Assembly: GCA_036275935.1 (NCBI GenBank)
Contig: DASUCS010000112.1
Coordinates: forward strand, 1 to 35,767
DNA: 35,767 nucleotides
Direction of reading: 5' to 3'
Source: Acidimicrobiales bacterium
Lineage (GTDB): Bacteria; Actinomycetota; Acidimicrobiia; Acidimicrobiales; JACDCH01
Shown here: piece after piece, positions 10,912-19,047 of the stretch
Numbering within the stretch: the stretch's first letter is position 1
Layout of the letters: each line of letters opens with the position of its first letter
Position numbers and translations under genes: made by a program
Notes under the pieces: model-generated
The model's input: only the letters and a program-made list of their open reading frames with translations
What the model was told of the DNA's origin: nothing
Database searches by the model: none

Positions 10912-13455
10912 TCAGTTCAAGATCGGCGCAACCGCCGAGAACCTTGAGTAGGCCGAATGGCTCTGCGGGTCCGGACGGTCGGTCGGGCGGCCGAAGTAGA
11001 AGCCCTGTGCGTAGTTGCAACCCAGCTCGGTGAGACGGCGGGCCTGACCCGCGTCCTCGACGCCTTCGGCGACGGTGTGCACACGCAGCACGTTGGCGAG
11101 GTGCAGGATCGCTTGCACGAAGCACGCACCTTCGACGTCCATCTCGATGTGGTCGATGAAGGACTTGTCGATCTTCAAGATGTCGACGGGGAACGTGCGC
11201 AGGTAGCTCAGTGACGAGTAACCCGTTCCGAAGTCGTCGATGGCGATGCGCACTCCGAGCTGCTTCAGCGAGTTGAGTTGGAACACTGCGAGCGTCGTGT
11301 CCTCGACCAACACGCTCTCGGTGATCTCGAGCGTGAGTCGTGTCGGATCGAGCTTCGTGCGGGCCAAGGTGTTCGCCACCATCTGTGCGAAGTCGGGATC
11401 GAACAGCTGACGGGCCGAGATGTTGACGCTCAGCCCGATGGGCCGTGGTCCTGTCCACGTGGTGGCCGCCGCGCACGCGTGCTCGAGCACCCAGTCACCG
11501 ATCGGCACGATGAGACCGGTGTCCTCGGCCAACGGAATGAATTCGAGCGGAGGCACGAGACCACGTGTCGGGTGCTCCCAGCGCAGGAGCGCCTCGAATG
11601 CGACTGTCCGCTTCGTGTCGAGCGCCACCACGGGCTGGAAGTGCAGGACGAGCTCGTTGCGCGCCAGCGCGTTGCGCAGCTCGCCCTCGAGCTCGAGACG
11701 AGCGAGCGCGGCGTCGTGCATCGTCGTCTCGAACACACGCCAGCTCGCAGGGCCGCTGGCCTTGGCGGCGTACATCGCCGCGTCCGCGTTGCGGATGAGC
11801 TCGTCCGCGGTCGCGGTGCCGTCGCGATGCGCCACGATGCCGACGCTGGCGCGCACGGCGACCTCCCGGCCCGAGACCGAGAACGGTGCTTCCAAGGCTG
11901 CGATGATCGTCGCGGCGAGATCGGTGGCATCGGACAGCTCGGCGATGTCCTCGACCAGCACGACGAACTCGTCGCCCCCGAGGCGAGCGGCAGTCGTTCC
12001 CGGGCCGAGGCAACCCGAGAGCCGGCCGGCGACTGCAACCAGCAGCTCGTCGCCGGTGCCATGGCCGAGGCTGTCGTTGATGGTCTTGAACCGGTCGAGG
12101 TCGAGCAGGAGGACTGCGAGCCCGTGGCCGTCCGGCCGGGTGAGCTGCAATGCGTGCTCGAGGCGGTCAGTGAACAGCGGGCGGTTCGCCAGTGAGGTGA
12201 GTGGATCGTGGAATGCCTGGTGGCGCAGCTGCTCTTCGAGCGCGTTCCGCTCTGTCACGTCGTTGATGTCGACGAGGACCGCATCGCGGCCAGCGAACAT
12301 CAATCGATGCGACGTGATCTCGACGTCGATGAGGCGTCCGTCCGCAAGGAGGTGCTGCCAGCGCCCTGACTGGTTCAGGCCGGGTTGCAGCTCGGCCACC
12401 GCGGCCAGGACCGAGTTGACGTCCGCGTCGGGACGGATGTCAGTGATGCGCTTCGCGAGGAACTCGTCGCGCGTGTAGCCGTAGTGACGAAGGGCAGAGT
12501 CGTTGACCTCGATGAAGTCGAGGGTCTGGACGTCGTACACCCACATCGGCCGCGGGTTCGACTCGAACAACATCCGGAAGCCGTTCTCGCTGGCGGCCAG
12601 TGCCTGCGCCGCGAGTCGCTCGTTCGTGACGTCGTGGATGTTGCACACGAACCCGCGCACGCTCGGCTCATGCAGGAGGTTGCGGATCGCGATCGAGCAC
12701 CACCGCCACGATCCATCCGCATGGCGCAAGCGCACGTGGACGCGGGTCGTCGCGTCCGGGTGCTCGCGCACCTCGGTGGTGACTTCGGCGAGCTCCTCGC
12801 GATCGTCGGGGTGGATTCGATCTGCGGCCGGTGTCCCGACGGTCTCGGACGGCCGGTAGCCGAGCACGTCGTAGAGGGGTGCGCTCTCGTAGGTGATGAC
12901 ACCCGCCTCGTCGACGACGGTGATGATGTCGGCGGCATTGGCCACGAGCGCTCGAAATCGCCGCTCGCGCGCGCGAATCGTCTGTTCACCGCGTCGAGCC
13001 TGCGATGACACCCATGCGACGACTTCACCCATGAGGATGGTCGTCGGGATGGCGTACGCGCCCGACGCGAGCGCCGACGCGTCCTCACCGCCGACGAGCA
13101 GCATCGGGGCGAAGTACGCGACCAGCAGCAACGGCGCGAACCGCAACGACATGCCCTGACGGTGACCGAGGCCGAGCCAGATGAAGATCACCATGTAGAA
13201 GAGGCCGTAGAGGAACCCGTCCGCGTGGGTCGCCATGTTGAAGCCGCAGACGACCGCGAGTGACAGCGGCATCAACCACAACGTCGCAGAGTGTCGCCAC
13301 TGGCTCCACGGCAGCAGTCCGATGACGACGCCACACACCAGCGCGGCGGCGGCCACGGCCTCCACCGCCCAACGGTTCGATCCCGGCGAGGTCGGGAGGG
13401 CTGCGGCTCCGATGGCCACGAGCGCGCCGCAGAGGAGGTAGAGCGCACTCGACAA
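10912..13455 (-). CDS. Membrane-anchored PAS-PAS-GGDEF-EAL protein (c-di-GMP synthase/phosphodiesterase)
   Basis: About 5 N-terminal TM helices and two PAS-like segments (FRALVANAADIITVVD..., FRMLFESNPRPMWVYD...). Intact GGDEF (ARLGGDEFVVLV, LDLDRFKTINDSLGHGTGD). Intact EAL signature set (FEALLRWEHP, VNISARQ, LEITES, DDFGTGYSSLSYL, LKIDKSF, AEGVED, QGFYFGRP). TTG start without a clear SD. Confidence 0.92.
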   Translation of the reverse strand: MSSALYLLCGALVAIGAAALPTSPGSNRWAVEAVAAAALVCGVVIGLLPWSQWRHSATLWLMPLSLAVVCGFNMATHADGFLYGLFYMVIFIWLGLGHRQGMSLRFAPLLLVAYFAPMLLVGGEDASALASGAYAIPTTILMGEVVAWVSSQARRGEQTIRARERRFRALVANAADIITVVDEAGVITYESAPLYDVLGYRPSETVGTPAADRIHPDDREELAEVTTEVREHPDATTRVHVRLRHADGSWRWCSIAIRNLLHEPSVRGFVCNIHDVTNERLAAQALAASENGFRMLFESNPRPMWVYDVQTLDFIEVNDSALRHYGYTRDEFLAKRITDIRPDADVNSVLAAVAELQPGLNQSGRWQHLLADGRLIDVEITSHRLMFAGRDAVLVDINDVTERNALEEQLRHQAFHDPLTSLANRPLFTDRLEHALQLTRPDGHGLAVLLLDLDRFKTINDSLGHGTGDELLVAVAGRLSGCLGPGTTAARLGGDEFVVLVEDIAELSDATDLAATIIAALEAPFSVSGREVAVRASVGIVAHRDGTATADELIRNADAAMYAAKASGPASWRVFETTMHDAALARLELEGELRNALARNELVLHFQPVVALDTKRTVAFEALLRWEHPTRGLVPPLEFIPLAEDTGLIVPIGDWVLEHACAAATTWTGPRPIGLSVNISARQLFDPDFAQMVANTLARTKLDPTRLTLEITESVLVEDTTLAVFQLNSLKQLGVRIAIDDFGTGYSSLSYLRTFPVDILKIDKSFIDHIEMDVEGACFVQAILHLANVLRVHTVAEGVEDAGQARRLTELGCNYAQGFYFGRPTDRPDPQSHSAYSRFSAVAPILN

Positions 13456-13514: not shown

Positions 13515-14321
13515 GTGCGAATCAACCCTTACGGCCGGGTTCTCTGCGCTGACCTGGCAGTACTGTCGGCCTCGGTGCTACCTGGGGACCTCGAGCGCGA
13601 CGGTTTCGCCGTCATCCCTGATGTCCTGACCGGTGACGAGATCGCCGCGGTTCGCGGCGCCCTCGCCCCGGAGTTTGCGATGGGACTCCACGGGCGCAAT
13701 CCGTTCGAAGGCCATCAGACGCAGCGGGTCTACTGCCTCGTCGCGAAGTCGCGAGCCTTCGATCGCCTGATCCTCGATCCCGCGGTCCTCGACATCGCGG
13801 AGCAAGTGCTCGGTCCCAACTTCCTGCTCACGGCCACCCTGGCGATCAAGCTCGAGCCAGGGGAGACCGCGCAGGACTTCCACTGGGACGACATCTTCTA
13901 CAAGGTCCCGCGTCCCCGACCGGCGATCTCGTTGAGCACGCTGTGGGCGATCGACGACTTCACGGAGGAGAACGGGGCCACCCTCGTGTATCCGGGAAGC
14001 CACCTGTGGGGTGACGGCCCGCCGTCGTCCGTGCCCGAGGCCGTGGCGACGACGATGCGCGCCGGTTCGGTCCTCGTGTACTACGGCACGCTCGTGCACG
14101 CGGGCGGCGCCAACCGCTCGGACGGCGAACGCCTCGGCATCTCGCTGCAGTACGCCGCGGCCTGGGCGCGGCAGCAGGAGAATTTCATGATGGCCATCGG
14201 CGTCGACGGTGCCCGCGCGTTGCCACCGCGACTGCAGGAGCTGATCGGGTACTCCATCCACCCGCCGTTCATGGGCATGATCGACGGACGCCATCCGAAG
14301 AAGCTCTTGACTGACATATAG
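13515..14321 (+). CDS. Phytanoyl-CoA dioxygenase (PhyH) family Fe(II)/2-oxoglutarate oxygenase
   Basis: DGFAVIPDVLTGDEI N-terminal pattern, HxD facial-triad candidate (FHWDD), distal His and Arg (LVHAGGANRS). An alternative in-frame GTG start lies at 13575. Confidence 0.8.
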   Translation: MRINPYGRVLCADLAVLSASVLPGDLERDGFAVIPDVLTGDEIAAVRGALAPEFAMGLHGRNPFEGHQTQRVYCLVAKSRAFDRLILDPAVLDIAEQVLGPNFLLTATLAIKLEPGETAQDFHWDDIFYKVPRPRPAISLSTLWAIDDFTEENGATLVYPGSHLWGDGPPSSVPEAVATTMRAGSVLVYYGTLVHAGGANRSDGERLGISLQYAAAWARQQENFMMAIGVDGARALPPRLQELIGYSIHPPFMGMIDGRHPKKLLTDI

Positions 14322-14342
14322 TGCTATGACATATATATGTTC
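14307..14342 (+). promoter_or_regulatory. AT-rich sigma70-like promoter with two 9-bp direct repeats (putative operator), apparently driving a leaderless GGDEF-RHH transcript
   Basis: TTGACT (14307-14312), 17 nt spacer, CATATA (14330-14335), or TATATA with a 19 nt spacer. TGACATATA occurs at 14312-14320 and again at 14327-14335. The ATG at 14343 lies about 7-8 nt after the -10 element. The PhyH stop (14319-14321) lies inside the element. Confidence 0.45.
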
Positions 14343-14969
14343 ATGGCTACTACATCAAAGGTGGTAACGCGAGCTACGCCAGCGGAGTGGATCGAAACCC
14401 TCGATCGAGCGCTGCACCACGGGAACGTGCCGCTGGCGGCGTTGCTGACGGACCTCGACGGCTTCGCCGTCATCAACGATGCGTATGGGCACGAGGCGGG
14501 GGACAAGGTGCTCGCGGCGTGGGGGACGACCCTGACCAGCAACCTGCCGGCCGACGCGGTCGTCGTGCGGCTCGGCGGCGACGAGTACGGCGTCGCGTTG
14601 CCGGGATTCTCCGCGGAGAACGCGCTGATCGTGTTCGAGGAGATCCGCACGCACTTCGCAACCCATCCGGTGAACGGCATCGACGCCGAGCTCGACGCGT
14701 CTGCCGGGATTGCCGCCGCGCCTCCGCACGGCGCGACGGGCGAGGAGCTGCACCGGGCCGCCGGCGAGGCGTTGATGCGAGCCAAGCGCGAGGGCCGCGG
14801 TCGGGCGGCGATCTACGTCGAAGAGAAGATGACCCTCAAGAGCAACTACTACAGCCGCGCGAACCTCGACCGGCTGTCCAAGTTGTCGGGCGCCACGAGT
14901 CGTACCGAGGCCAGCCTGCTGCGGGAGGCGCTCGACGATCTCTTCCTCAAGTACCGCGACGCGCTGTAG
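14343..14969 (+). CDS. Sensor-less GGDEF-domain protein fused to a C-terminal ribbon-helix-helix-like DNA-binding domain
   Basis: GGDEF-domain hallmarks LLTDLDGFAVINDAYGHEAGDKVL and RLGGDEYGVAL (motif at 14574-14588), plus RAKREGRGR. The C-terminal about 45 aa (14826-14966), KMTLKSNYYSRANLDRLSKLSGATSRTEASLLREALDDLFLKY, fit a strand-helix-helix CopG/Arc pattern. An alternative ATG lies at 14337. Confidence 0.8.
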   Translation: MATTSKVVTRATPAEWIETLDRALHHGNVPLAALLTDLDGFAVINDAYGHEAGDKVLAAWGTTLTSNLPADAVVVRLGGDEYGVALPGFSAENALIVFEEIRTHFATHPVNGIDAELDASAGIAAAPPHGATGEELHRAAGEALMRAKREGRGRAAIYVEEKMTLKSNYYSRANLDRLSKLSGATSRTEASLLREALDDLFLKYRDAL

Positions 14970-15004
14970 ACGCTTAGCATCCGCCTCGACTTGAGGGGGA
15001 TGCC

Positions 15005-16240
15005 ATGGCCGAGTTGAAGGTCGAGATCGATCCGGCGGAGGCGGGCTTCGATGCCACACGGCTGGCGCGCATCGATGCACACTTCGCTCGTTACGTCGAC
15101 GACGGACTGTTGCCCGGCTGGCTGGTCGTCGTGGCTCGGGGCGGCGACGTCGTGCATCTGTCGACGTACGGCGACCGGGACAAGGAAGCCGGCCTTCCTG
15201 TCGAGCTCGACACCATCTTCCGCATGTACTCGATGACGAAGCCGGTCACGTCGGTGGCCGCGATGATGCTCTACGAGGAGGGTGGCTTCGAGCTGAAGGA
15301 TCCCGTCTCCCGCTACATCCCGTCGTTCGAGAGCGTGCGCGTGTACCGCGGCGGCTCCGCGCTCGCGCCGGTGACCGAACCGGTGACCGAACCGATGCGG
15401 GTGTGGCATCTGCTCTCGCACACGTCGGGCCTCACCTACGGCTTCCATCACGCCCATCCGGTCGACGCGATCTACCGCAACGGCGGGTACGAGTGGGGCT
15501 GGCGTCCGGACGACGACCTCGAGAAGGCGTGCGACACGTGGGCGACCTATCCGTTGCTGTTCCAGCCGGGAACCGAATGGAACTACGGCGTGAGCACCGA
15601 CGTGCTCGGCCGGGTGGTGGAGGTCGTGAGCGGCCAATCGCTCGACGAGTTCTTCCGCACGCGGATCTTCGAGCCGCTCGGGATGAGCGACACCGCGTTC
15701 TTCGCTCCGGAGTCGGATCATCACCGCCTCGCGGCGCTGTACTTCCCCGAGCCCGGCTCACGGCGTGCCGTGCGGCTCGACGCGATGGGTGACGCGGCGA
15801 AGACGAAGCCGACGTTGTTCTCCGGCGGGGGCGGTCTCGTCGGTACCGCCGCCGACTACCACCGGTTCGCCACGATGCTGCTGCACGAGGGCGAGCTCGA
15901 CGGCGTGCGTCTCCTGGGCTCGCGCACCGTCGAGTACATGACCCAGAACCACCTGCCGGGGGGAGCCGACCTCGAAGCGTTCGGTCGCCCGTTGTTCTCC
16001 GAGACGACGTTCGACGGTGTCGGTTTCGGGCTCGGTTTCTCGGTGCTCGACGACCCGGCGAAGGCGAAGGTGCTGTCGACGGCCGGCGAGTACGGCTGGG
16101 GCGGTGCGGCCAGCACCGCGTTCTGGGTGGATCCTGTCGAAGGCATCACCGCGCTGTTCCTGACGCAACTTCTGCCGTCGAGCACACATCCGATCCGTCC
16201 GCAGCTGAAGCAGCTCGTCTATCAAGCGCTGGTCGATTGA
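15005..16240 (+). CDS. Beta-lactamase-related serine hydrolase (class C / EstB-like esterase family)
   Basis: SxxK nucleophile motif (FRMYSMTKPVTS), a YGxS region and a C-terminal GWGG motif (GEYGWGGAAST). SD GAGGGGGA upstream. Confidence 0.88.
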   Translation: MAELKVEIDPAEAGFDATRLARIDAHFARYVDDGLLPGWLVVVARGGDVVHLSTYGDRDKEAGLPVELDTIFRMYSMTKPVTSVAAMMLYEEGGFELKDPVSRYIPSFESVRVYRGGSALAPVTEPVTEPMRVWHLLSHTSGLTYGFHHAHPVDAIYRNGGYEWGWRPDDDLEKACDTWATYPLLFQPGTEWNYGVSTDVLGRVVEVVSGQSLDEFFRTRIFEPLGMSDTAFFAPESDHHRLAALYFPEPGSRRAVRLDAMGDAAKTKPTLFSGGGGLVGTAADYHRFATMLLHEGELDGVRLLGSRTVEYMTQNHLPGGADLEAFGRPLFSETTFDGVGFGLGFSVLDDPAKAKVLSTAGEYGWGGAASTAFWVDPVEGITALFLTQLLPSSTHPIRPQLKQLVYQALVD

Positions 16241-17239: not shown

Positions 17240-19047
17240 TACCGGTAGGCCGCGGCTTGGATCCCGTAGAGCTCGGCGTACTGACCGCCACGACCGATGA
17301 GCTCGTCATGACTGCCGACCTCGACGACCTGCGAGCCGTCGAGCACGACGATCAGGTCCGCCATGCGCACGGTGCTGAAGCGGTGCGACACCAGGATGGT
17401 GATGCGGGTGTCGTCGTCGCCCCCACGCGCCCCCGACGCGTACCGCTCGAACAGCGCGTGCTCGGTCTCGGCGTCGAGCGCCGCGGTCGGTTCGTCGAGG
17501 GCAACGACGAGCGGCTCGTCGCGCATGAAGCCGCGGGCGAGGGCGAGCTTCTGCCACTGCCCGAACGACACCTCGACGCCATCCGGCCAGGTCGGACCGA
17601 GTTGGGTCTCCAACCCGGCCTCGAGCCGCTGCACGACGTCGTCGGCACCGGCACGGTCGACCGCTTCGACCACCGCGGGAACGTCGTCGAACCTCGGCAC
17701 GTCGCCGACGCCCACCGAGTGGCGGGCGCGGAACTCGAAACGGAAGAAGTCCTGGAACGCCCCTGACAGACGGCTGCGCCACTCGACGGCAGGCATGCGA
17801 GTGAGGGGTTGACCGTCGACGTAGATCGCGCCGCTGGTCGGCTCGTACAACTTCGCCAGAAGCTTCACGAGCGTCGTCTTGCCTGCGCCGTTCTCACCGA
17901 CGATGGCGACGACACTGCCGGCCGGGAATTCGACCGACACGTCGTCGAGCACGAGCCGGTCGGTGCCCGGATACGCGAACGACACGTGATCGAACGTGAT
18001 GCCGTCGTGCAGGGTCTCGGGTACCTCGAGGTCTTCGTGGGCGACGATCGATGCTGCGTAGTCCTCGAGCCACGCGAGCCGCCGGGAGCCGTCGACCCAG
18101 ATGCCGCGTAGGAAGCCGATCTCACCGACAGTTGCGCCGATGTACTGCGACAGGCGCGAGCCGGCGGCGAGCACCAGCAGAACGTCACCGACCGGCGCAT
18201 CGAGTCCGCTCGACACGAACACGATCGCACCGACGTAGGCGAGGCCGAACACCGACCATGCCAGCGCATGCCACACCGCACTCACGGCCCGGGCATGTCC
18301 CATGCCTTCGTACCAACGCTCCCACGCGTCGCGCCGATCGGTCGTGAGGCGCGGCCCGATCCCCGTGACCCGGACTTCCTTCCCGGCCGGTGCGGTCGTC
18401 GCGGTGGTGAAGAGGTGCTGGGACAGCCGCTTCGCGGGTGCGCCCTTCTCCTCGACGTCACGCTCGACTCCCGGACGCCACGAGGAGGTCAACACCGTCG
18501 GCAACGCAAACGCAGCGAGCAGGACGAGGGCGGGATGGATCGATGCCAACAAGAGCACGGTGACGCCGAGCCTCAAGATCCATCCGGCAGTCGAGAAGAC
18601 CGACATGTACATGTGGTCGAGCACGAAGATCTGGTTCCGGAGCACCGACAGCCGGTCGAGGTACTCGGGGCGCTCCTGGTGCGCAATGGTCGACACGGAC
18701 GCCTGCAACCTCGCGACGTGGGACTCGAGGGCGATCGTCACCTTGTCGCGGAAGCGACGTTGCACGCGGGTGGACACGGTGGCGAGAAACCACGTCAATG
18801 TTGCCGACAGCGCGATGCCCATCGCCGCGACCTGCACCTTCCCGCGATCGCCGGCGACGACGCCGTCACCGAGCATCTTGAACCACACTGCGAGCAGCGC
18901 GTCCGGGAGTGCGGCGAGCAGCGCGAGCACGAACGCGACGAGCATCAGTGCGGGCTCGTGCTGGTAGCCGAGCTTGCACAACCGCCACATCGACTTCAGT
19001 GCAGGCGGCAGCTCCTCGTCGGTCGACGGCGCGTCAAGCGAGGACAT
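17239..19047 (-). CDS. ABC exporter half-transporter (TMD-NBD fusion), subunit with a degenerate signature motif
   Basis: Six-TM exporter domain followed by an NBD. Walker A GENGAGKTT and Walker B VVALDEPTAALD are present, and the H-loop is SHRF. The signature reads VSFGQWQKLA instead of LSGGQ. SD GGAGGAG upstream. It overlaps the upstream gene by 14 nt. Confidence 0.9.
   Translation of the reverse strand: MSSLDAPSTDEELPPALKSMWRLCKLGYQHEPALMLVAFVLALLAALPDALLAVWFKMLGDGVVAGDRGKVQVAAMGIALSATLTWFLATVSTRVQRRFRDKVTIALESHVARLQASVSTIAHQERPEYLDRLSVLRNQIFVLDHMYMSVFSTAGWILRLGVTVLLLASIHPALVLLAAFALPTVLTSSWRPGVERDVEEKGAPAKRLSQHLFTTATTAPAGKEVRVTGIGPRLTTDRRDAWERWYEGMGHARAVSAVWHALAWSVFGLAYVGAIVFVSSGLDAPVGDVLLVLAAGSRLSQYIGATVGEIGFLRGIWVDGSRRLAWLEDYAASIVAHEDLEVPETLHDGITFDHVSFAYPGTDRLVLDDVSVEFPAGSVVAIVGENGAGKTTLVKLLAKLYEPTSGAIYVDGQPLTRMPAVEWRSRLSGAFQDFFRFEFRARHSVGVGDVPRFDDVPAVVEAVDRAGADDVVQRLEAGLETQLGPTWPDGVEVSFGQWQKLALARGFMRDEPLVVALDEPTAALDAETEHALFERYASGARGGDDDTRITILVSHRFSTVRMADLIVVLDGSQVVEVGSHDELIGRGGQYAELYGIQAAAYR

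Follow-up and report, generated by a model that had tools for sequence, protein, structure and literature searches.

What does a GGDEF protein do when it lacks the devices that normally keep such enzymes in check? To our knowledge, c-di-GMP synthesis in every studied cyclase is controlled by N-terminal sensor or dimerization domains and by product inhibition through the I-site. The gene considered here, on the forward strand of the window (that is, the whole 35,767-bp stretch of DNA that was analyzed), encodes a member of a family that has neither control; the sole partner of the GGDEF domain in these proteins is a C-terminal module, putatively for DNA binding and dimerization, and the promoter carries what resembles an operator for this module. 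We address, in turn, the architecture of the protein and its relatives, the promoter, the likely function, and the most similar known systems.

Domain architecture and the protein family

The open reading frame occupies positions 14337..14969 (forward strand; 210 aa). Within it, the coding sequence proper, 14343..14969 on the same strand, consists of 208 codons and a stop codon. The ATG at 14343 is favored by the family alignment and by the promoter geometry and yields the conserved MATT start of the protein; translation is less likely to begin at the alternative ATG further upstream (14337). The gene is chromosomal, is present in a single copy, and has the same composition as its surroundings. 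The GGDEF domain (residues 19-153; 14397..14801, forward strand) is delineated by the Pfam match, the core of the AF2 model, the Foldseek results, and the invariant catalytic columns. It is followed by the end of the GGDEF fold and the linker (14802..14828, forward strand), a stretch that includes the beta strand I155-Y-V157 and an acidic E-E-K segment and extends up to Met163. The rest of the protein is almost entirely taken up by the ribbon-helix-helix (RHH) domain (residues 163-205; 14829..14957, forward strand), which was assigned through transitive homology to RHH families, the AF2 helices, and hhalign. Judging from the AF2 secondary structure and the family alignment (A1), the linker between the two domains is only ~5 residues long. 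We are highly confident in this two-domain architecture; the fusion proposed in the original prediction is borne out both by the strong matches to GGDEF profiles and by relatives of the tail that pass the curated thresholds of RHH_3 or RHH_1.

The protein matches the Pfam GGDEF profile PF00990 over residues 19-153 with E = 4.4e-27 and 95.3 bits (cut-off, 23.8), and TIGR00254 with E = 8.2e-29 and 100.5 bits (cut-off, 37.4). The GGDEF core of the AF2 model has pLDDT >90, and a Foldseek search with this model retrieved DosC, PleD, DgcB, WspR, and others, with E values from 1e-13 to 1e-15 and TM to the target of up to 0.89; the best structural matches are active cyclases. The motifs quoted in the original prediction (DLDGF, INDAYGHEAGD, and GGDEY) are present, and the catalytic columns are invariant among 43 aligned family sequences with 61-90% identity, namely D37-L-D39-G-F41, N45, G49, G53-D54, K148, and R152. 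By correspondence to PleD-type positions, we take D37 and D39 to be metal-binding, N45 and D54 to be guanine-binding, and K148 and R152 to be the transition-state residues. The A-site of the window protein reads G78-G79-D80-E81-Y82; GGDE is invariant in the 43 members, and position 82 is occupied by either F or Y. An RxxD I-site is indeed missing, with residues 69-72 reading PADA. The domain had also been described as complete-looking, which is accurate for the catalytic set but not for the N-terminal DxLTGLxNR, given that the Pfam match begins at profile position 22 of 161. This wide-turn segment is absent throughout the subfamily in the family alignment and is kept in distant relatives with the same RHH tail. 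With the active site so preserved, we lean toward active c-di-GMP synthesis by the window protein; the absence of DxLT and the F-to-Y change in the A-site could lower or abolish the predicted activity.

The tail had been expected to match RHH profiles, and here the relatives succeeded where the window sequence itself did not. Taken alone, the window tail stays below the cut-offs of PF20605 (Antitoxin-like RHH; E = 3.9e-4, 20.9 bits, cut-off 27.2) and PF12651 (E = 2.2e-3, 18.4 bits, cut-off 21.6). Each of the 25 family tails matches both PF20605 and PF12651, with best E values of 7.8e-7 and 8.6e-6, respectively; the CopG family RHH_1 is matched by 12 of them. Relatives linked to the window tail via the tail profile, with E values from 1e-9 to 1e-14, pass the curated threshold of RHH_3 (P0167 with 35.6 bits, P0205 with 29.3 bits, P0225, P0226, P0246, P0253, and P0258) or that of RHH_1 (P0243, 24.4 bits). 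The hhalign comparison of the tail with CopG gave E = 3.2e-4 over helix 1, the loop, and helix 2; the comparison with Arc was not significant. The search of the tail profile against PDB sequences yielded nothing relevant (best E = 0.38, for a phage sheath protein), and Foldseek found no significant match for the tail-only AF2 model, the low-rmsd, high-E structural neighbors of which (Arc, CopG, CdbA, PutA-RHH, and VapB) all fall short of significance.

The tail opens with a putative beta strand, MTLKSNYY, with an alternation of polar and hydrophobic residues in KMTLKSNYY, and continues with two helices in the AF2 model (residues 172-185 and 189-205) connected by the loop G-A-T-S-R-T-E; at the sequence level, the loop motif G-x-[ST]-R-T-E marks the N terminus of helix 2. 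In the family alignment, conservation is highest in the RHH, where it is extreme. In the AF2 monomer models, the strand is not formed: its region, residues 162-169, is disordered in one model and a low-confidence helix in the other, with a pLDDT of 44 at residues 161-170 of the full protein; this is the expected outcome if the strand forms in the dimer only, and is not proof of it.

The window protein belongs to a conserved family of proteins of 195-210 aa, the few named members of which come from Acidimicrobiia, and no sensor domain of any kind is present in this GGDEF-RHH subfamily. In a scan of the genome collection, which was swamped by the generic GGDEF pattern, the only true members were L006 (Microthrixaceae) and L007 (Acidimicrobiia). 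L008 and L044, which were considered as members because of a seeming tail alignment, are really ordinary GGDEF-EAL proteins. The tail represents a GGDEF-associated type of RHH, for which the tail profile retrieved 318 clusters at 50% identity. These come from at least four phyla, and their annotations go no further than 'diguanylate cyclase' or 'GGDEF domain-containing protein'. Matches of 45-90 aa were considered as standalone RHH proteins, and all three that were inspected are frameshifted or truncated GGDEF-RHH genes. The original prediction stated that no characterized GGDEF-RHH fusion was known, and we found no description in the literature of a GGDEF fusion with a ribbon-helix-helix, CopG, or RHH domain; the architecture itself, however, is not rare. 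Proteins of this widespread type do not appear to have been studied.

In 64 of the 76 representative full-length clusters, the active site is degenerate, with the A-site altered or the guanine-binding N/D gone, and the RHH is highly conserved; the subfamily of the window protein is among the catalytically intact minority. Because most of the GGDEF domains are degenerate and the RHH is kept, the conserved job of the module may be DNA binding or dimerization, with the GGDEF domain playing a regulatory part. In the wider module, some proteins carry the RHH between a GGDEF domain and an HD-GYP, FliG_C, or FHIPEP domain, and for such sandwiched domains a purely dimerizing role is as plausible as DNA binding. 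A homolog from a Bacillus toyonensis plasmid carries GKDEF in the A-site. GGDEF_2 (PF17853) is a secondary match in a few relatives only, and the window protein itself shows a canonical GGDEF domain and no HTH match, in contrast to the PucR type, which combines PF13556 with a degenerate PF17853.

The promoter region and its operator-like palindrome

The neighbors of the gene in the window encode PhyH, beta-lactamase-family, and polysaccharide deacetylase proteins. These genes vary at other loci, and the gene-neighborhood analysis of the family loci revealed no conserved partner, so that the unit to be considered is the gene with its promoter. A -35-like hexamer, TTGACT (14307..14312, forward strand), is contained in the 3'-terminal part of the PhyH-family gene upstream. 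TATATA occurs just once in the 35,767-bp window (0.06 expected), as a -10-like box (14332..14337, forward strand). The 46 distinct promoter regions of the family share TTGAC 35-37 nt before the start codon and the TATATA box, and the spacing TTGAC/~18 nt/TATATA is conserved. Outside promoters, the family loci contain 0.02 TATATA-type boxes per kb, a value for which the box density within promoters is a circular counterpart since an AT-rich box was among the criteria by which the 46 regions were picked. Upstream of the gene, conservation in the family peaks at positions -11 to -5. None of the 46 regions contains a Shine-Dalgarno sequence, and its absence behind the conserved box, along with the conserved MATT start, suggests that the mRNA is leaderless; in one family member (L007), an ordinary Shine-Dalgarno leader is present and the box is absent. 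The TATATA box does not fit TANNNT, and a strict sigma70 scan called no promoter at the locus, so that both the transcription start and the leaderless status are what we infer from the conserved layout.

The upstream repeats noted originally are real. Two identical direct copies of TGACATATA (14312-14320 and 14327-14335, forward strand; repeat family D2, 100% identity, spacing of 15 nt) form the operator-like left half of a conserved, imperfect palindrome of ~42 bp, a putative RHH operator (14313..14356; columns 15-58 of alignment A5). The palindrome is centered at a TATATAT core and takes in the spacer and the -10-like box as well as the start codon and codons 2-5. In the window, 15 of its 21 pairs are Watson-Crick; the number ranges from 8 to 21 across the family loci, and at one of these (L129), the 42-bp palindrome is perfect. 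In alignment A5, the Watson-Crick symmetry is 60.6% in register, compared to 12-33% in slid registers. Complementarity of the outer arms within a locus is 58.7%, compared to 51.1 +/- 1.6% with the arms permuted among loci (0/2000), a test that overstates independence because the loci are phylogenetically related, with most of the symmetry being family-wide consensus. There are compensatory A:T to G:C changes, for example, in columns 22/52 (13 vs 8 loci), and G:T pairs, at 6.3%, are not enriched in the outer arms. The ungapped palindrome score per locus, 13.8 of 25 compared to 10.9 in shuffles, is only modestly elevated because the arms carry indels, and for only 6 of the 46 left arms is its own right arm the best partner. 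The covariation signal is real but weak.

Two further observations concern the element itself. The third positions of codons 2-3 are A or T in 72-74% of the cases, compared to 12% elsewhere in the gene. Furthermore, AT-rich palindromes are located upstream of four of the five distant GGDEF-RHH genes; ATACATATGTAT is common to the distant loci L168 and L170, and at L168, the ATACATATGTAT palindrome lies downstream of a separate, canonical -35/-10 promoter and hence is more than a -10 box. There are no further copies of the operator in the window, where a single match with 3 mismatches occurs at 18602, or in the ~173 kb of sequence flanking the family loci, and therefore we do not propose a regulon.

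Proposed function and alternative explanations

The best reading of the sequence data, to which we assign a probability of about 0.5, is that the protein is a sensor-less diguanylate cyclase that is dimerized by its RHH domain and represses its own promoter. The RHH would form the usual intertwined dimer and so confer constitutive dimerization, which elsewhere comes from N-terminal sensor or stalk domains; an RHH that serves as the dimerizer would explain the loss of the stalk-coupling DxLT segment. Dimers of this fold insert an antiparallel ribbon into the major groove of DNA, and the conserved palindrome at the gene's own promoter lends indirect support to such a dimer here. RHH dimers, probably at least two abreast, would occupy the palindrome and block access to the promoter. 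In this way, the protein would repress the gene that encodes it, the transcript of which is probably leaderless, and set a ceiling on its own abundance, with transcriptional self-limitation in place of product inhibition through the I-site. Taken by itself, DNA binding with autoregulation by the GGDEF-RHH protein appears somewhat more probable than its absence.

The coupling of catalysis to DNA binding is a tentative and rather improbable extension of this scheme. In this more speculative step, the nucleotide or dimer state of the GGDEF domain would modulate operator binding and turn the protein into a 'trigger' cyclase, a possibility that arises from the direct attachment of the GGDEF domain to the N terminus of the DNA-reading strand. 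It is doubtful that GGDEF-RHH proteins as a whole are an unrecognized class of such trigger cyclases, each making c-di-GMP and reading DNA, with operator binding and the formation of the catalytic dimer mutually coupled. If they are, the coupling would consist in DNA-templated activation, or else in dissociation from DNA induced by substrate or product, and second-messenger homeostasis at the level of transcription would result; the ancestral core of the device would then be the GGDEF-associated RHH, conserved in at least four phyla, along with the AT-rich (TA)n palindrome, and the many members with a degenerate GGDEF domain would be derived, nucleotide-sensing repressors.

Several alternatives have to be weighed against the self-repressing cyclase. 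The GGDEF domain might be a sensor that binds GTP, c-di-GMP, or another ligand, with the RHH as the output, in a nucleotide-sensing transcription factor analogous to PucR and MabR. Apart from this precedent and the PF17853 matches in a few family members, such a role fits the combination of a degenerate GGDEF domain with a nearly invariant RHH in those 64 of the 76 clusters, the GKDEF of the B. toyonensis plasmid homolog, and the lack of DxLTGLxNR in the window's own subfamily. We nonetheless consider it unlikely for the window protein because the invariance of the catalytic residues in 43 members would be difficult to account for unless catalysis, or at least substrate binding, has been under selection, and there is no I-site to bind c-di-GMP. 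Conversely, the RHH could be a dimerization clamp of the cyclase that does not bind DNA, and the palindrome could be no more than a promoter that is AT-rich and unusually strong, or a site at which another regulator binds. The TATATA core does double as a -10-like box, the RHH is sandwiched between GGDEF and HD-GYP, FliG_C, or FHIPEP domains in some relatives, and the strand sequence is kept from phylum to phylum, as is seldom the case in sequence-specific DNA readers. A mere clamp seems improbable, however, given that the symmetry extends ~20 bp to each side of the core and into the coding region, with compensatory changes, that codons 2-3 are constrained at the nucleotide level, and that the L168 palindrome stands apart from the canonical -35/-10 pair. 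Moreover, the outward-facing residues of the strand, K/T/K/N, are typical of DNA contacts, and a similar box accompanies GGDEF-RHH genes across lineages, in keeping with an invariant DNA-reading strand.

The symmetry of the element could also reflect an RNA hairpin in a longer transcript, one that sequesters the start codon or terminates the upstream gene. The start codon does lie inside the inverted repeat, 71% of the cells pair if G-U is counted, and the upstream PhyH-family gene of the window ends within the element. Still, this appears highly improbable: the invariant TTGAC at a fixed distance places the left arm upstream of the transcription start, the upstream genes differ or are divergent at other loci, and the outer arms show the above lack of G:T enrichment. 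Nor did the terminator scan find a T-run terminator at the locus, and the window contains no match to any Rfam family, such as the c-di-GMP riboswitch. A tRNA is likewise absent from the window. Finally, that the best-matching Pfam family of the tail is the 'Antitoxin-like RHH', PF20605, and that one homolog resides on a conjugative Bacillus plasmid might point to an antitoxin-type RHH in a toxin-antitoxin or mobile module. This is the least credible of the alternatives, with hardly any probability left to it: in no examined locus does a toxin-like partner adjoin the gene, which, in the window, is chromosomal, single, and compositionally indistinct from its surroundings.

If the self-repressing cyclase is the correct reading, the protein would be the first cyclase to double as a transcription factor and would mirror, on the side of synthesis, the phosphodiesterase PdeL. 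It would also reveal a new, C-terminal route to GGDEF dimerization and a cyclase the output of which is limited by autorepression rather than by allostery. The system is compact, with a 208-aa protein and ~50 bp of promoter and operator, and hence directly testable; potentially, it could serve as a self-limiting source of c-di-GMP. More broadly, a likely function would be at hand for hundreds of proteins that are annotated as 'diguanylate cyclase', many of which are probably not cyclases, and c-di-GMP biology would be opened up in Acidimicrobiia, abundant and largely uncultured Actinobacteria of soil and water.

Comparison with known systems

Canonical diguanylate cyclases, such as PleD, WspR, DgcB, and DosC, have to form a homodimer for catalysis, in which c-di-GMP is made from 2 GTP. 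Their catalytic fold and residues are those of the window protein. However, these enzymes dimerize by N-terminal receiver, coiled-coil (DgcB), or sensor domains that act via DxLT, and most possess the RxxD I-site, whereas in the window protein the only candidate dimerizer is located at the C terminus, and neither DxLT nor RxxD is present. On the DNA-binding side, CopG, Arc, Mnt, and MetJ act on palindromic or repeated operators that overlap the promoter under control and accommodate at least two dimers. The window tail, a small module with a putative beta-alpha-alpha arrangement and a G-x-S/T loop that precedes helix 2, resembles these repressors. They are, however, standalone proteins of 45-105 aa with the strand at or near the N terminus, whereas in the window protein an enzyme domain of 160 aa lies ~5 residues ahead of the RHH strand. 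The nearest precedent for an N-terminal globular domain combined with a C-terminal RHH is probably provided by HicB-type antitoxins.

A connection between the RHH fold and c-di-GMP is known from CdbA of Myxococcus xanthus, an RHH receptor of c-di-GMP in which the binding of c-di-GMP and that of DNA are mutually exclusive, with both ligands competing for the strand and loop surfaces (PMC7156744). The similarity to the window protein lies in the putative RHH fold of the tail: the tail model aligns with CdbA at 1.9 A over 37 residues, which is not significant, and the tail shows no detectable sequence similarity to CdbA, a standalone, tetrameric nucleoid-associated protein of 67 aa without an enzyme domain. 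Proteins of the PucR/MabR type, which are frequent in Actinobacteria, share with the window protein the order of a GGDEF-fold domain (in their case, the GGDEF-like PF17853) and a C-terminal DNA-binding domain (in their case, the PucR HTH; putative in the window protein) (PMC11617747). The GGDEF-like domain of PucR lacks the catalytic and inhibitory motifs, and the corresponding sequence in MabR is HGTWL (PMC11617747). These proteins are larger and contain additional sensor domains along with the HTH, whereas the window protein has an RHH and retains all the catalytic residues.

In the trigger enzymes of c-di-GMP signaling, PdeR and PdeL, the catalytic or ligand state of an active enzyme controls a macromolecular target, for example, DNA; what the window protein shows of this is the architecture and the operator-like site. 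A functional parallel is PdeL (YahA) of E. coli, a 'trigger phosphodiesterase' that consists of a LuxR-type HTH and an EAL domain and binds an imperfect palindrome in its own promoter (PMC5052742). As in the window protein, a domain that metabolizes c-di-GMP and a DNA-binding domain, the latter putative in our case, are joined in one polypeptide, and a palindrome is located at the protein's own promoter; there is no sequence relationship, and the likeness is one of function. The two systems are also opposite in several respects. PdeL degrades c-di-GMP via its EAL domain, whereas the window protein is predicted to make it, and the DNA-binding domain is an N-terminal HTH in PdeL and a C-terminal RHH in the window protein. 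Furthermore, the autoregulation of PdeL is positive and involves a site far upstream, whereas the palindrome in the window overlaps the promoter, which predicts repression.

The GGDEF domain and its C-terminal tail

The ORF at 14337-14969 on the forward strand encodes a protein of 210 aa, or 208 aa if the second ATG (14343) is the start. Residues 19-153 match the Pfam GGDEF domain (E = 4.4e-27), and the protein also matches TIGR00254 (E = 8.2e-29). All three predicted motifs (DLDGF, INDAYGHEAGD and GGDEY) were found, and the predicted lack of an RxxD I-site is borne out by PADA at residues 69-72. The domain had also been described as complete-looking, which is right for the motifs and the overall match but not for the N-terminus: the Pfam match covers the profile only from position 22 of 161 onward, so that DxLTGLxNR, the 'wide-turn' segment that canonical GGDEF domains carry at the N-terminus, is absent. 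In an AlphaFold2 model with 43 homologues as input, the catalytic core has pLDDT above 90, residues 162-169 are disordered, and helices follow at 172-185 and 189-205; the core superposes on the solved cyclases DosC, PleD, DgcB, WspR and SadC (Foldseek E 1e-13 to 1e-15). The protein is a member of the GGDEF family with every defining feature except the wide-turn segment.

A short linker (E-E-K) joins the last GGDEF strand to a tail that was predicted to be a ribbon-helix-helix (RHH) domain. The tail alone stays below threshold (PF20605 Antitox_RHH, E = 3.9e-4; PF12651 RHH_3, E = 2.2e-3), but all 25 distinct tails of its close full-length relatives match both profiles (best E 7.8e-7 and 8.6e-6); the CopG-type RHH_1 is matched by 12 of the 25 as well. 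Searching 1.84 billion representative proteins with a tail profile yielded 318 clusters at E <= 1e-3, of which 88 reach E <= 1e-10. Among the relatives so retrieved, P0167 (35.6 bits), P0205 (29.3), P0226 (26.4), P0225 (26.1), P0253 (25.7), P0246 (25.6) and P0258 (24.0) exceed the curated Pfam cut-off for RHH_3 (21.6 bits), and P0243 (24.4 bits) exceeds that for RHH_1 (20.5 bits). With hhalign, a broad tail alignment matches CopG over helix 1, loop and helix 2 (E = 3.2e-4), leaving the register of the strand loose, and two RHH hallmarks are present: the strand of alternating character K-M-T-L-K-S-N-Y-Y and the loop G-x-T-S-R-T-E at the N-terminus of helix 2. The sequence search of the tail against solved structures gave no match; the tail-only model had no significant Foldseek match, its low-rmsd neighbours being Arc, CopG, CdbA, PutA-RHH and VapB, and the RHH strand is not formed in monomer models of either the protein or the tail. 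At the level of transitive homology, rather than of structure, the assignment of the tail to RHH is well supported, the protein very probably belongs to the RHH superfamily, and we hold the GGDEF plus C-terminal RHH architecture with high confidence.

The close family and the wider module

The protein has many full-length relatives (192-210 aa, 62-100% identity); the few that carry an organism name come from Acidimicrobiaceae or Acidimicrobiales MAGs, and a genome scan adds Microthrixaceae and Acidimicrobiia. A 43-sequence family alignment shows no variation at D37, D39, F41, N45, G49, G53, D54, G78-G79-D80-E81, K148 and R152, and either F or Y at position 82. Sensor domains, I-sites and DxLT are lacking in all members, and conservation peaks in the tail (mean column identity 86%).

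The same type of RHH follows GGDEF domains beyond Acidimicrobiia, in Chloroflexota (Anaerolinea thermolimosa, Oscillochloridaceae), Bacillota (Bacillus toyonensis plasmid pDC11_2, WP_259418203.1) and Pseudomonadota MAGs, with the consensus (E/D)xKM[VIT]LK[ST][NS]YY..QLxRL..LA....R[TS]EAxLLREALDDLLxKY. The predicted fusion is real but, with 318 tail-profile clusters in at least four phyla, common in sequence data. Its architectures comprise GGDEF-RHH, GGDEF-GGDEF-RHH, GGDEF-RHH-HD(GYP), GGDEF-RHH-FliG_C and GGDEF-RHH-FHIPEP. The larger ones, with HD_5 (HD-GYP-like), FliG_C, an FHIPEP fragment or tandem GGDEF, occur in P0159, P0261, P0174, P0226, P0246, P0205 (the A. thermolimosa protein, UniRef A0A7C4KFU5) and P0225, and thus include fusions to flagellar-motor and export domains. 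Many short matches resembled standalone RHH proteins; all three that were inspected are frameshifted or truncated GGDEF-RHH genes, so the RHH type looks specifically GGDEF-associated. Two of these ORFs, labelled 'standalone RHH' or 'predicted DNA-binding protein' (L166, 2750-3215; L168, 2001-3234), are the 3' portions of GGDEF-RHH or GGDEF-GGDEF-RHH genes broken by a frameshift, and the third (L167, 2031-2280) is a remnant with the last GGDEF residues, GRNKIAL, still in frame upstream; these broken genes could be assembly errors or pseudogenes.

The full catalytic set is kept in 12 of 76 representative full-length clusters, a count from an automated alignment in which a few sites may be misplaced; what the module conserves best is therefore the RHH rather than catalysis. 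In many of the 76 the motif reads GRDEF, GKDSF, SGDEF or AGDEF and the guanine-binding N/D is lost; some others retain DxLT and an RxxD I-site. The subfamily studied here belongs to the minority predicted to be catalytically intact. WP_259418203.1 (189 aa; L173 2069-2638, that is, NZ_CP103779.1 48566-49135) has the same tail and a degenerate GGDEF (GKDEF) without the guanine-binding N/D; it is annotated 'diguanylate cyclase' but probably is not one.

A palindrome over a promoter-like element at the gene start

The gene neighbors are kept among close relatives only and are wholly different in more distant family loci, so the gene and the stretch just upstream of it make up the functional unit. 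In the window, the neighbors include a PAS-GGDEF-EAL protein, a PhyH-family gene, a polysaccharide deacetylase and ABC transporters. Just upstream lie an 847-aa membrane PAS-GGDEF-EAL protein (10912-13455, reverse strand) and the PhyH-family dioxygenase (13515-14321, forward strand), both of which keep this position only in the close relatives L001/L002. The next gene, for a beta-lactamase-family protein (15005-16240), has its own Shine-Dalgarno-like GAGGGGGA and begins 35 nt (14970-15004) after the GGDEF-RHH stop; no terminator was detected, so the two could be co-transcribed in this genome. This neighbor is missing even in L001/L002, and downstream genes in more distant loci are unrelated.

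When 46 distinct family loci were aligned on the start codon, TTGAC was found 35-37 nt upstream, followed by a spacer of about 18 nt, a TATATA(T/C) box and (G)TC-ATG, with no Shine-Dalgarno sequence before the start, a geometry compatible with a sigma70-type promoter whose mRNA would be leaderless. The promoter reading is supported by two variant loci (L163, L118) that pair TTG(A/C)AC / N17 / TATATA with a leader carrying a Shine-Dalgarno sequence. A strict sigma70 scan called no promoter at the locus; alternating TATATA is incompatible with TANNNT. The only TATATA in the 35.8-kb window lies inside the element (0.06 expected). Elsewhere in the family loci such boxes occur at 0.02 per kb, none in front of another gene; their density inside the family promoters is circular, as the loci were chosen for the AT-rich box. 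One family member of 54% identity (L007 2902-3576, Acidimicrobiia MAG) has an ordinary AAGGAG leader and no TATATA/TTGAC element, and another locus (L155, ~2000-2040) has ACG in place of the start ATG in an otherwise intact element.

Superimposed on this element is a long inverted repeat centered on a TA core. In the window it spans 14313-14356 with 15 of 21 pairs and contains two TGACATATA direct repeats, the upstream repeats of the original prediction; L129 carries it as a perfect 42-bp palindrome, GACGTAGTAGCCATGACATATATATGTCATGGCTACTACGTC. In the window the PhyH gene ends within this region, its last codons and its stop codon (14319-14321) falling on the -35 box and the left arm, so PhyH read-through could interfere with the GGDEF-RHH promoter. 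Over the 46 loci, 60.6% of the 21 register pairs are Watson-Crick, versus 12-33% when the register is slid by 1-4 columns. For the ten outer pairs the value is 58.7% versus 51.1 +/- 1.6% with right arms permuted among loci, which none of 2000 permutations reached, although, the loci being related, this cannot be read as a true probability. Some pairs change in a compensatory way: columns 22/52, for example, have A:T in 13 loci but G:C in 8. Pairs per locus range from 8 to 21 of 21 and the arms carry indels, so the symmetry signal is not overwhelming.

The right arm coincides with codons 1-5. Across the 46 family loci, A or T fills 72-74% of third positions in codons 2-3 versus 12% in codons 11-190 (GC3 of the window gene, 0.88), and the first codons (14343-14357) are evidently under nucleotide-level selection, which accounts for the conservation of MATT, a disordered N-terminal peptide. 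AT-rich palindromic boxes also precede four of five distant members with fetched DNA: ATACATATGTAT is common to L168 and L170, L172 has a TTGACA box and then GTTATATATATGTAAC, and L169 has inverted copies of GTATATAT; the fifth, L171, has no such box. In L168, a canonical TTGCAT / N17 / TATACT promoter lies separately, about 20 nt upstream of the palindrome; this speaks against the box being just a -10 element.

A putative autorepressing cyclase and its alternatives

We propose, with a probability of roughly 0.5, that this is a sensor-less, RHH-dimerized, autorepressing diguanylate cyclase. The RHH would form the usual intertwined dimer and serve as the dimerization device of the cyclase; loss of DxLT, which couples to the stalk, would fit a shift from N-terminal to C-terminal dimerization. 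At least two RHH dimers on the palindrome would block the promoter and thereby repress the gene, and such autorepression would cap the enzyme level, substituting for I-site feedback. Judged from sequence, autoregulatory DNA binding is somewhat favored, and so, to the same degree, is catalysis. The original prediction of one polypeptide linking cyclic-dinucleotide synthesis to DNA stands in part, as to the fusion and the DNA link (RHH relatives, conserved palindrome). More speculatively, DNA binding may affect, and be affected by, GGDEF pairing or nucleotide binding, as the catalytic domain is attached directly to the N-terminus of the DNA-reading strand; coupling of catalysis to DNA binding is possible but doubtful.

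The protein might instead be a non-catalytic, nucleotide-sensing repressor, as the degenerate GGDEF in the majority of the wider module and the PucR/MabR precedent (PMC11617747) would suggest; the catalytic residues are, however, invariant in this family, and we consider this unlikely. It is also unlikely that the RHH is purely a dimerization clamp, with the palindrome serving only as a promoter or as the site of another factor. An RNA hairpin is very improbable: outer-arm G:T pairs are not enriched (6.3%) and the left arm lies upstream of the inferred start, which points to symmetry at the DNA level. That the gene is an antitoxin module is scarcely credible.

Full-text searching of a part of the journal literature found no description of a GGDEF-RHH fusion, in line with the original prediction, and the database names are generic; the type is apparently common in sequence data yet uncharacterized. 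A PucR-type regulator is excluded, the HTH being absent and the GGDEF canonical. There are two precedents for the proposed mechanism: in CdbA, c-di-GMP and DNA contest the RHH (PMC7156744), and PdeL autoregulates in a c-di-GMP-dependent manner via a palindrome (PMC5052742); neither is related in sequence to the protein described here. PdeL is its closest functional likeness, turned inside out: PdeL degrades c-di-GMP, has an HTH and activates, whereas this protein has an RHH and is predicted to synthesize and to repress.
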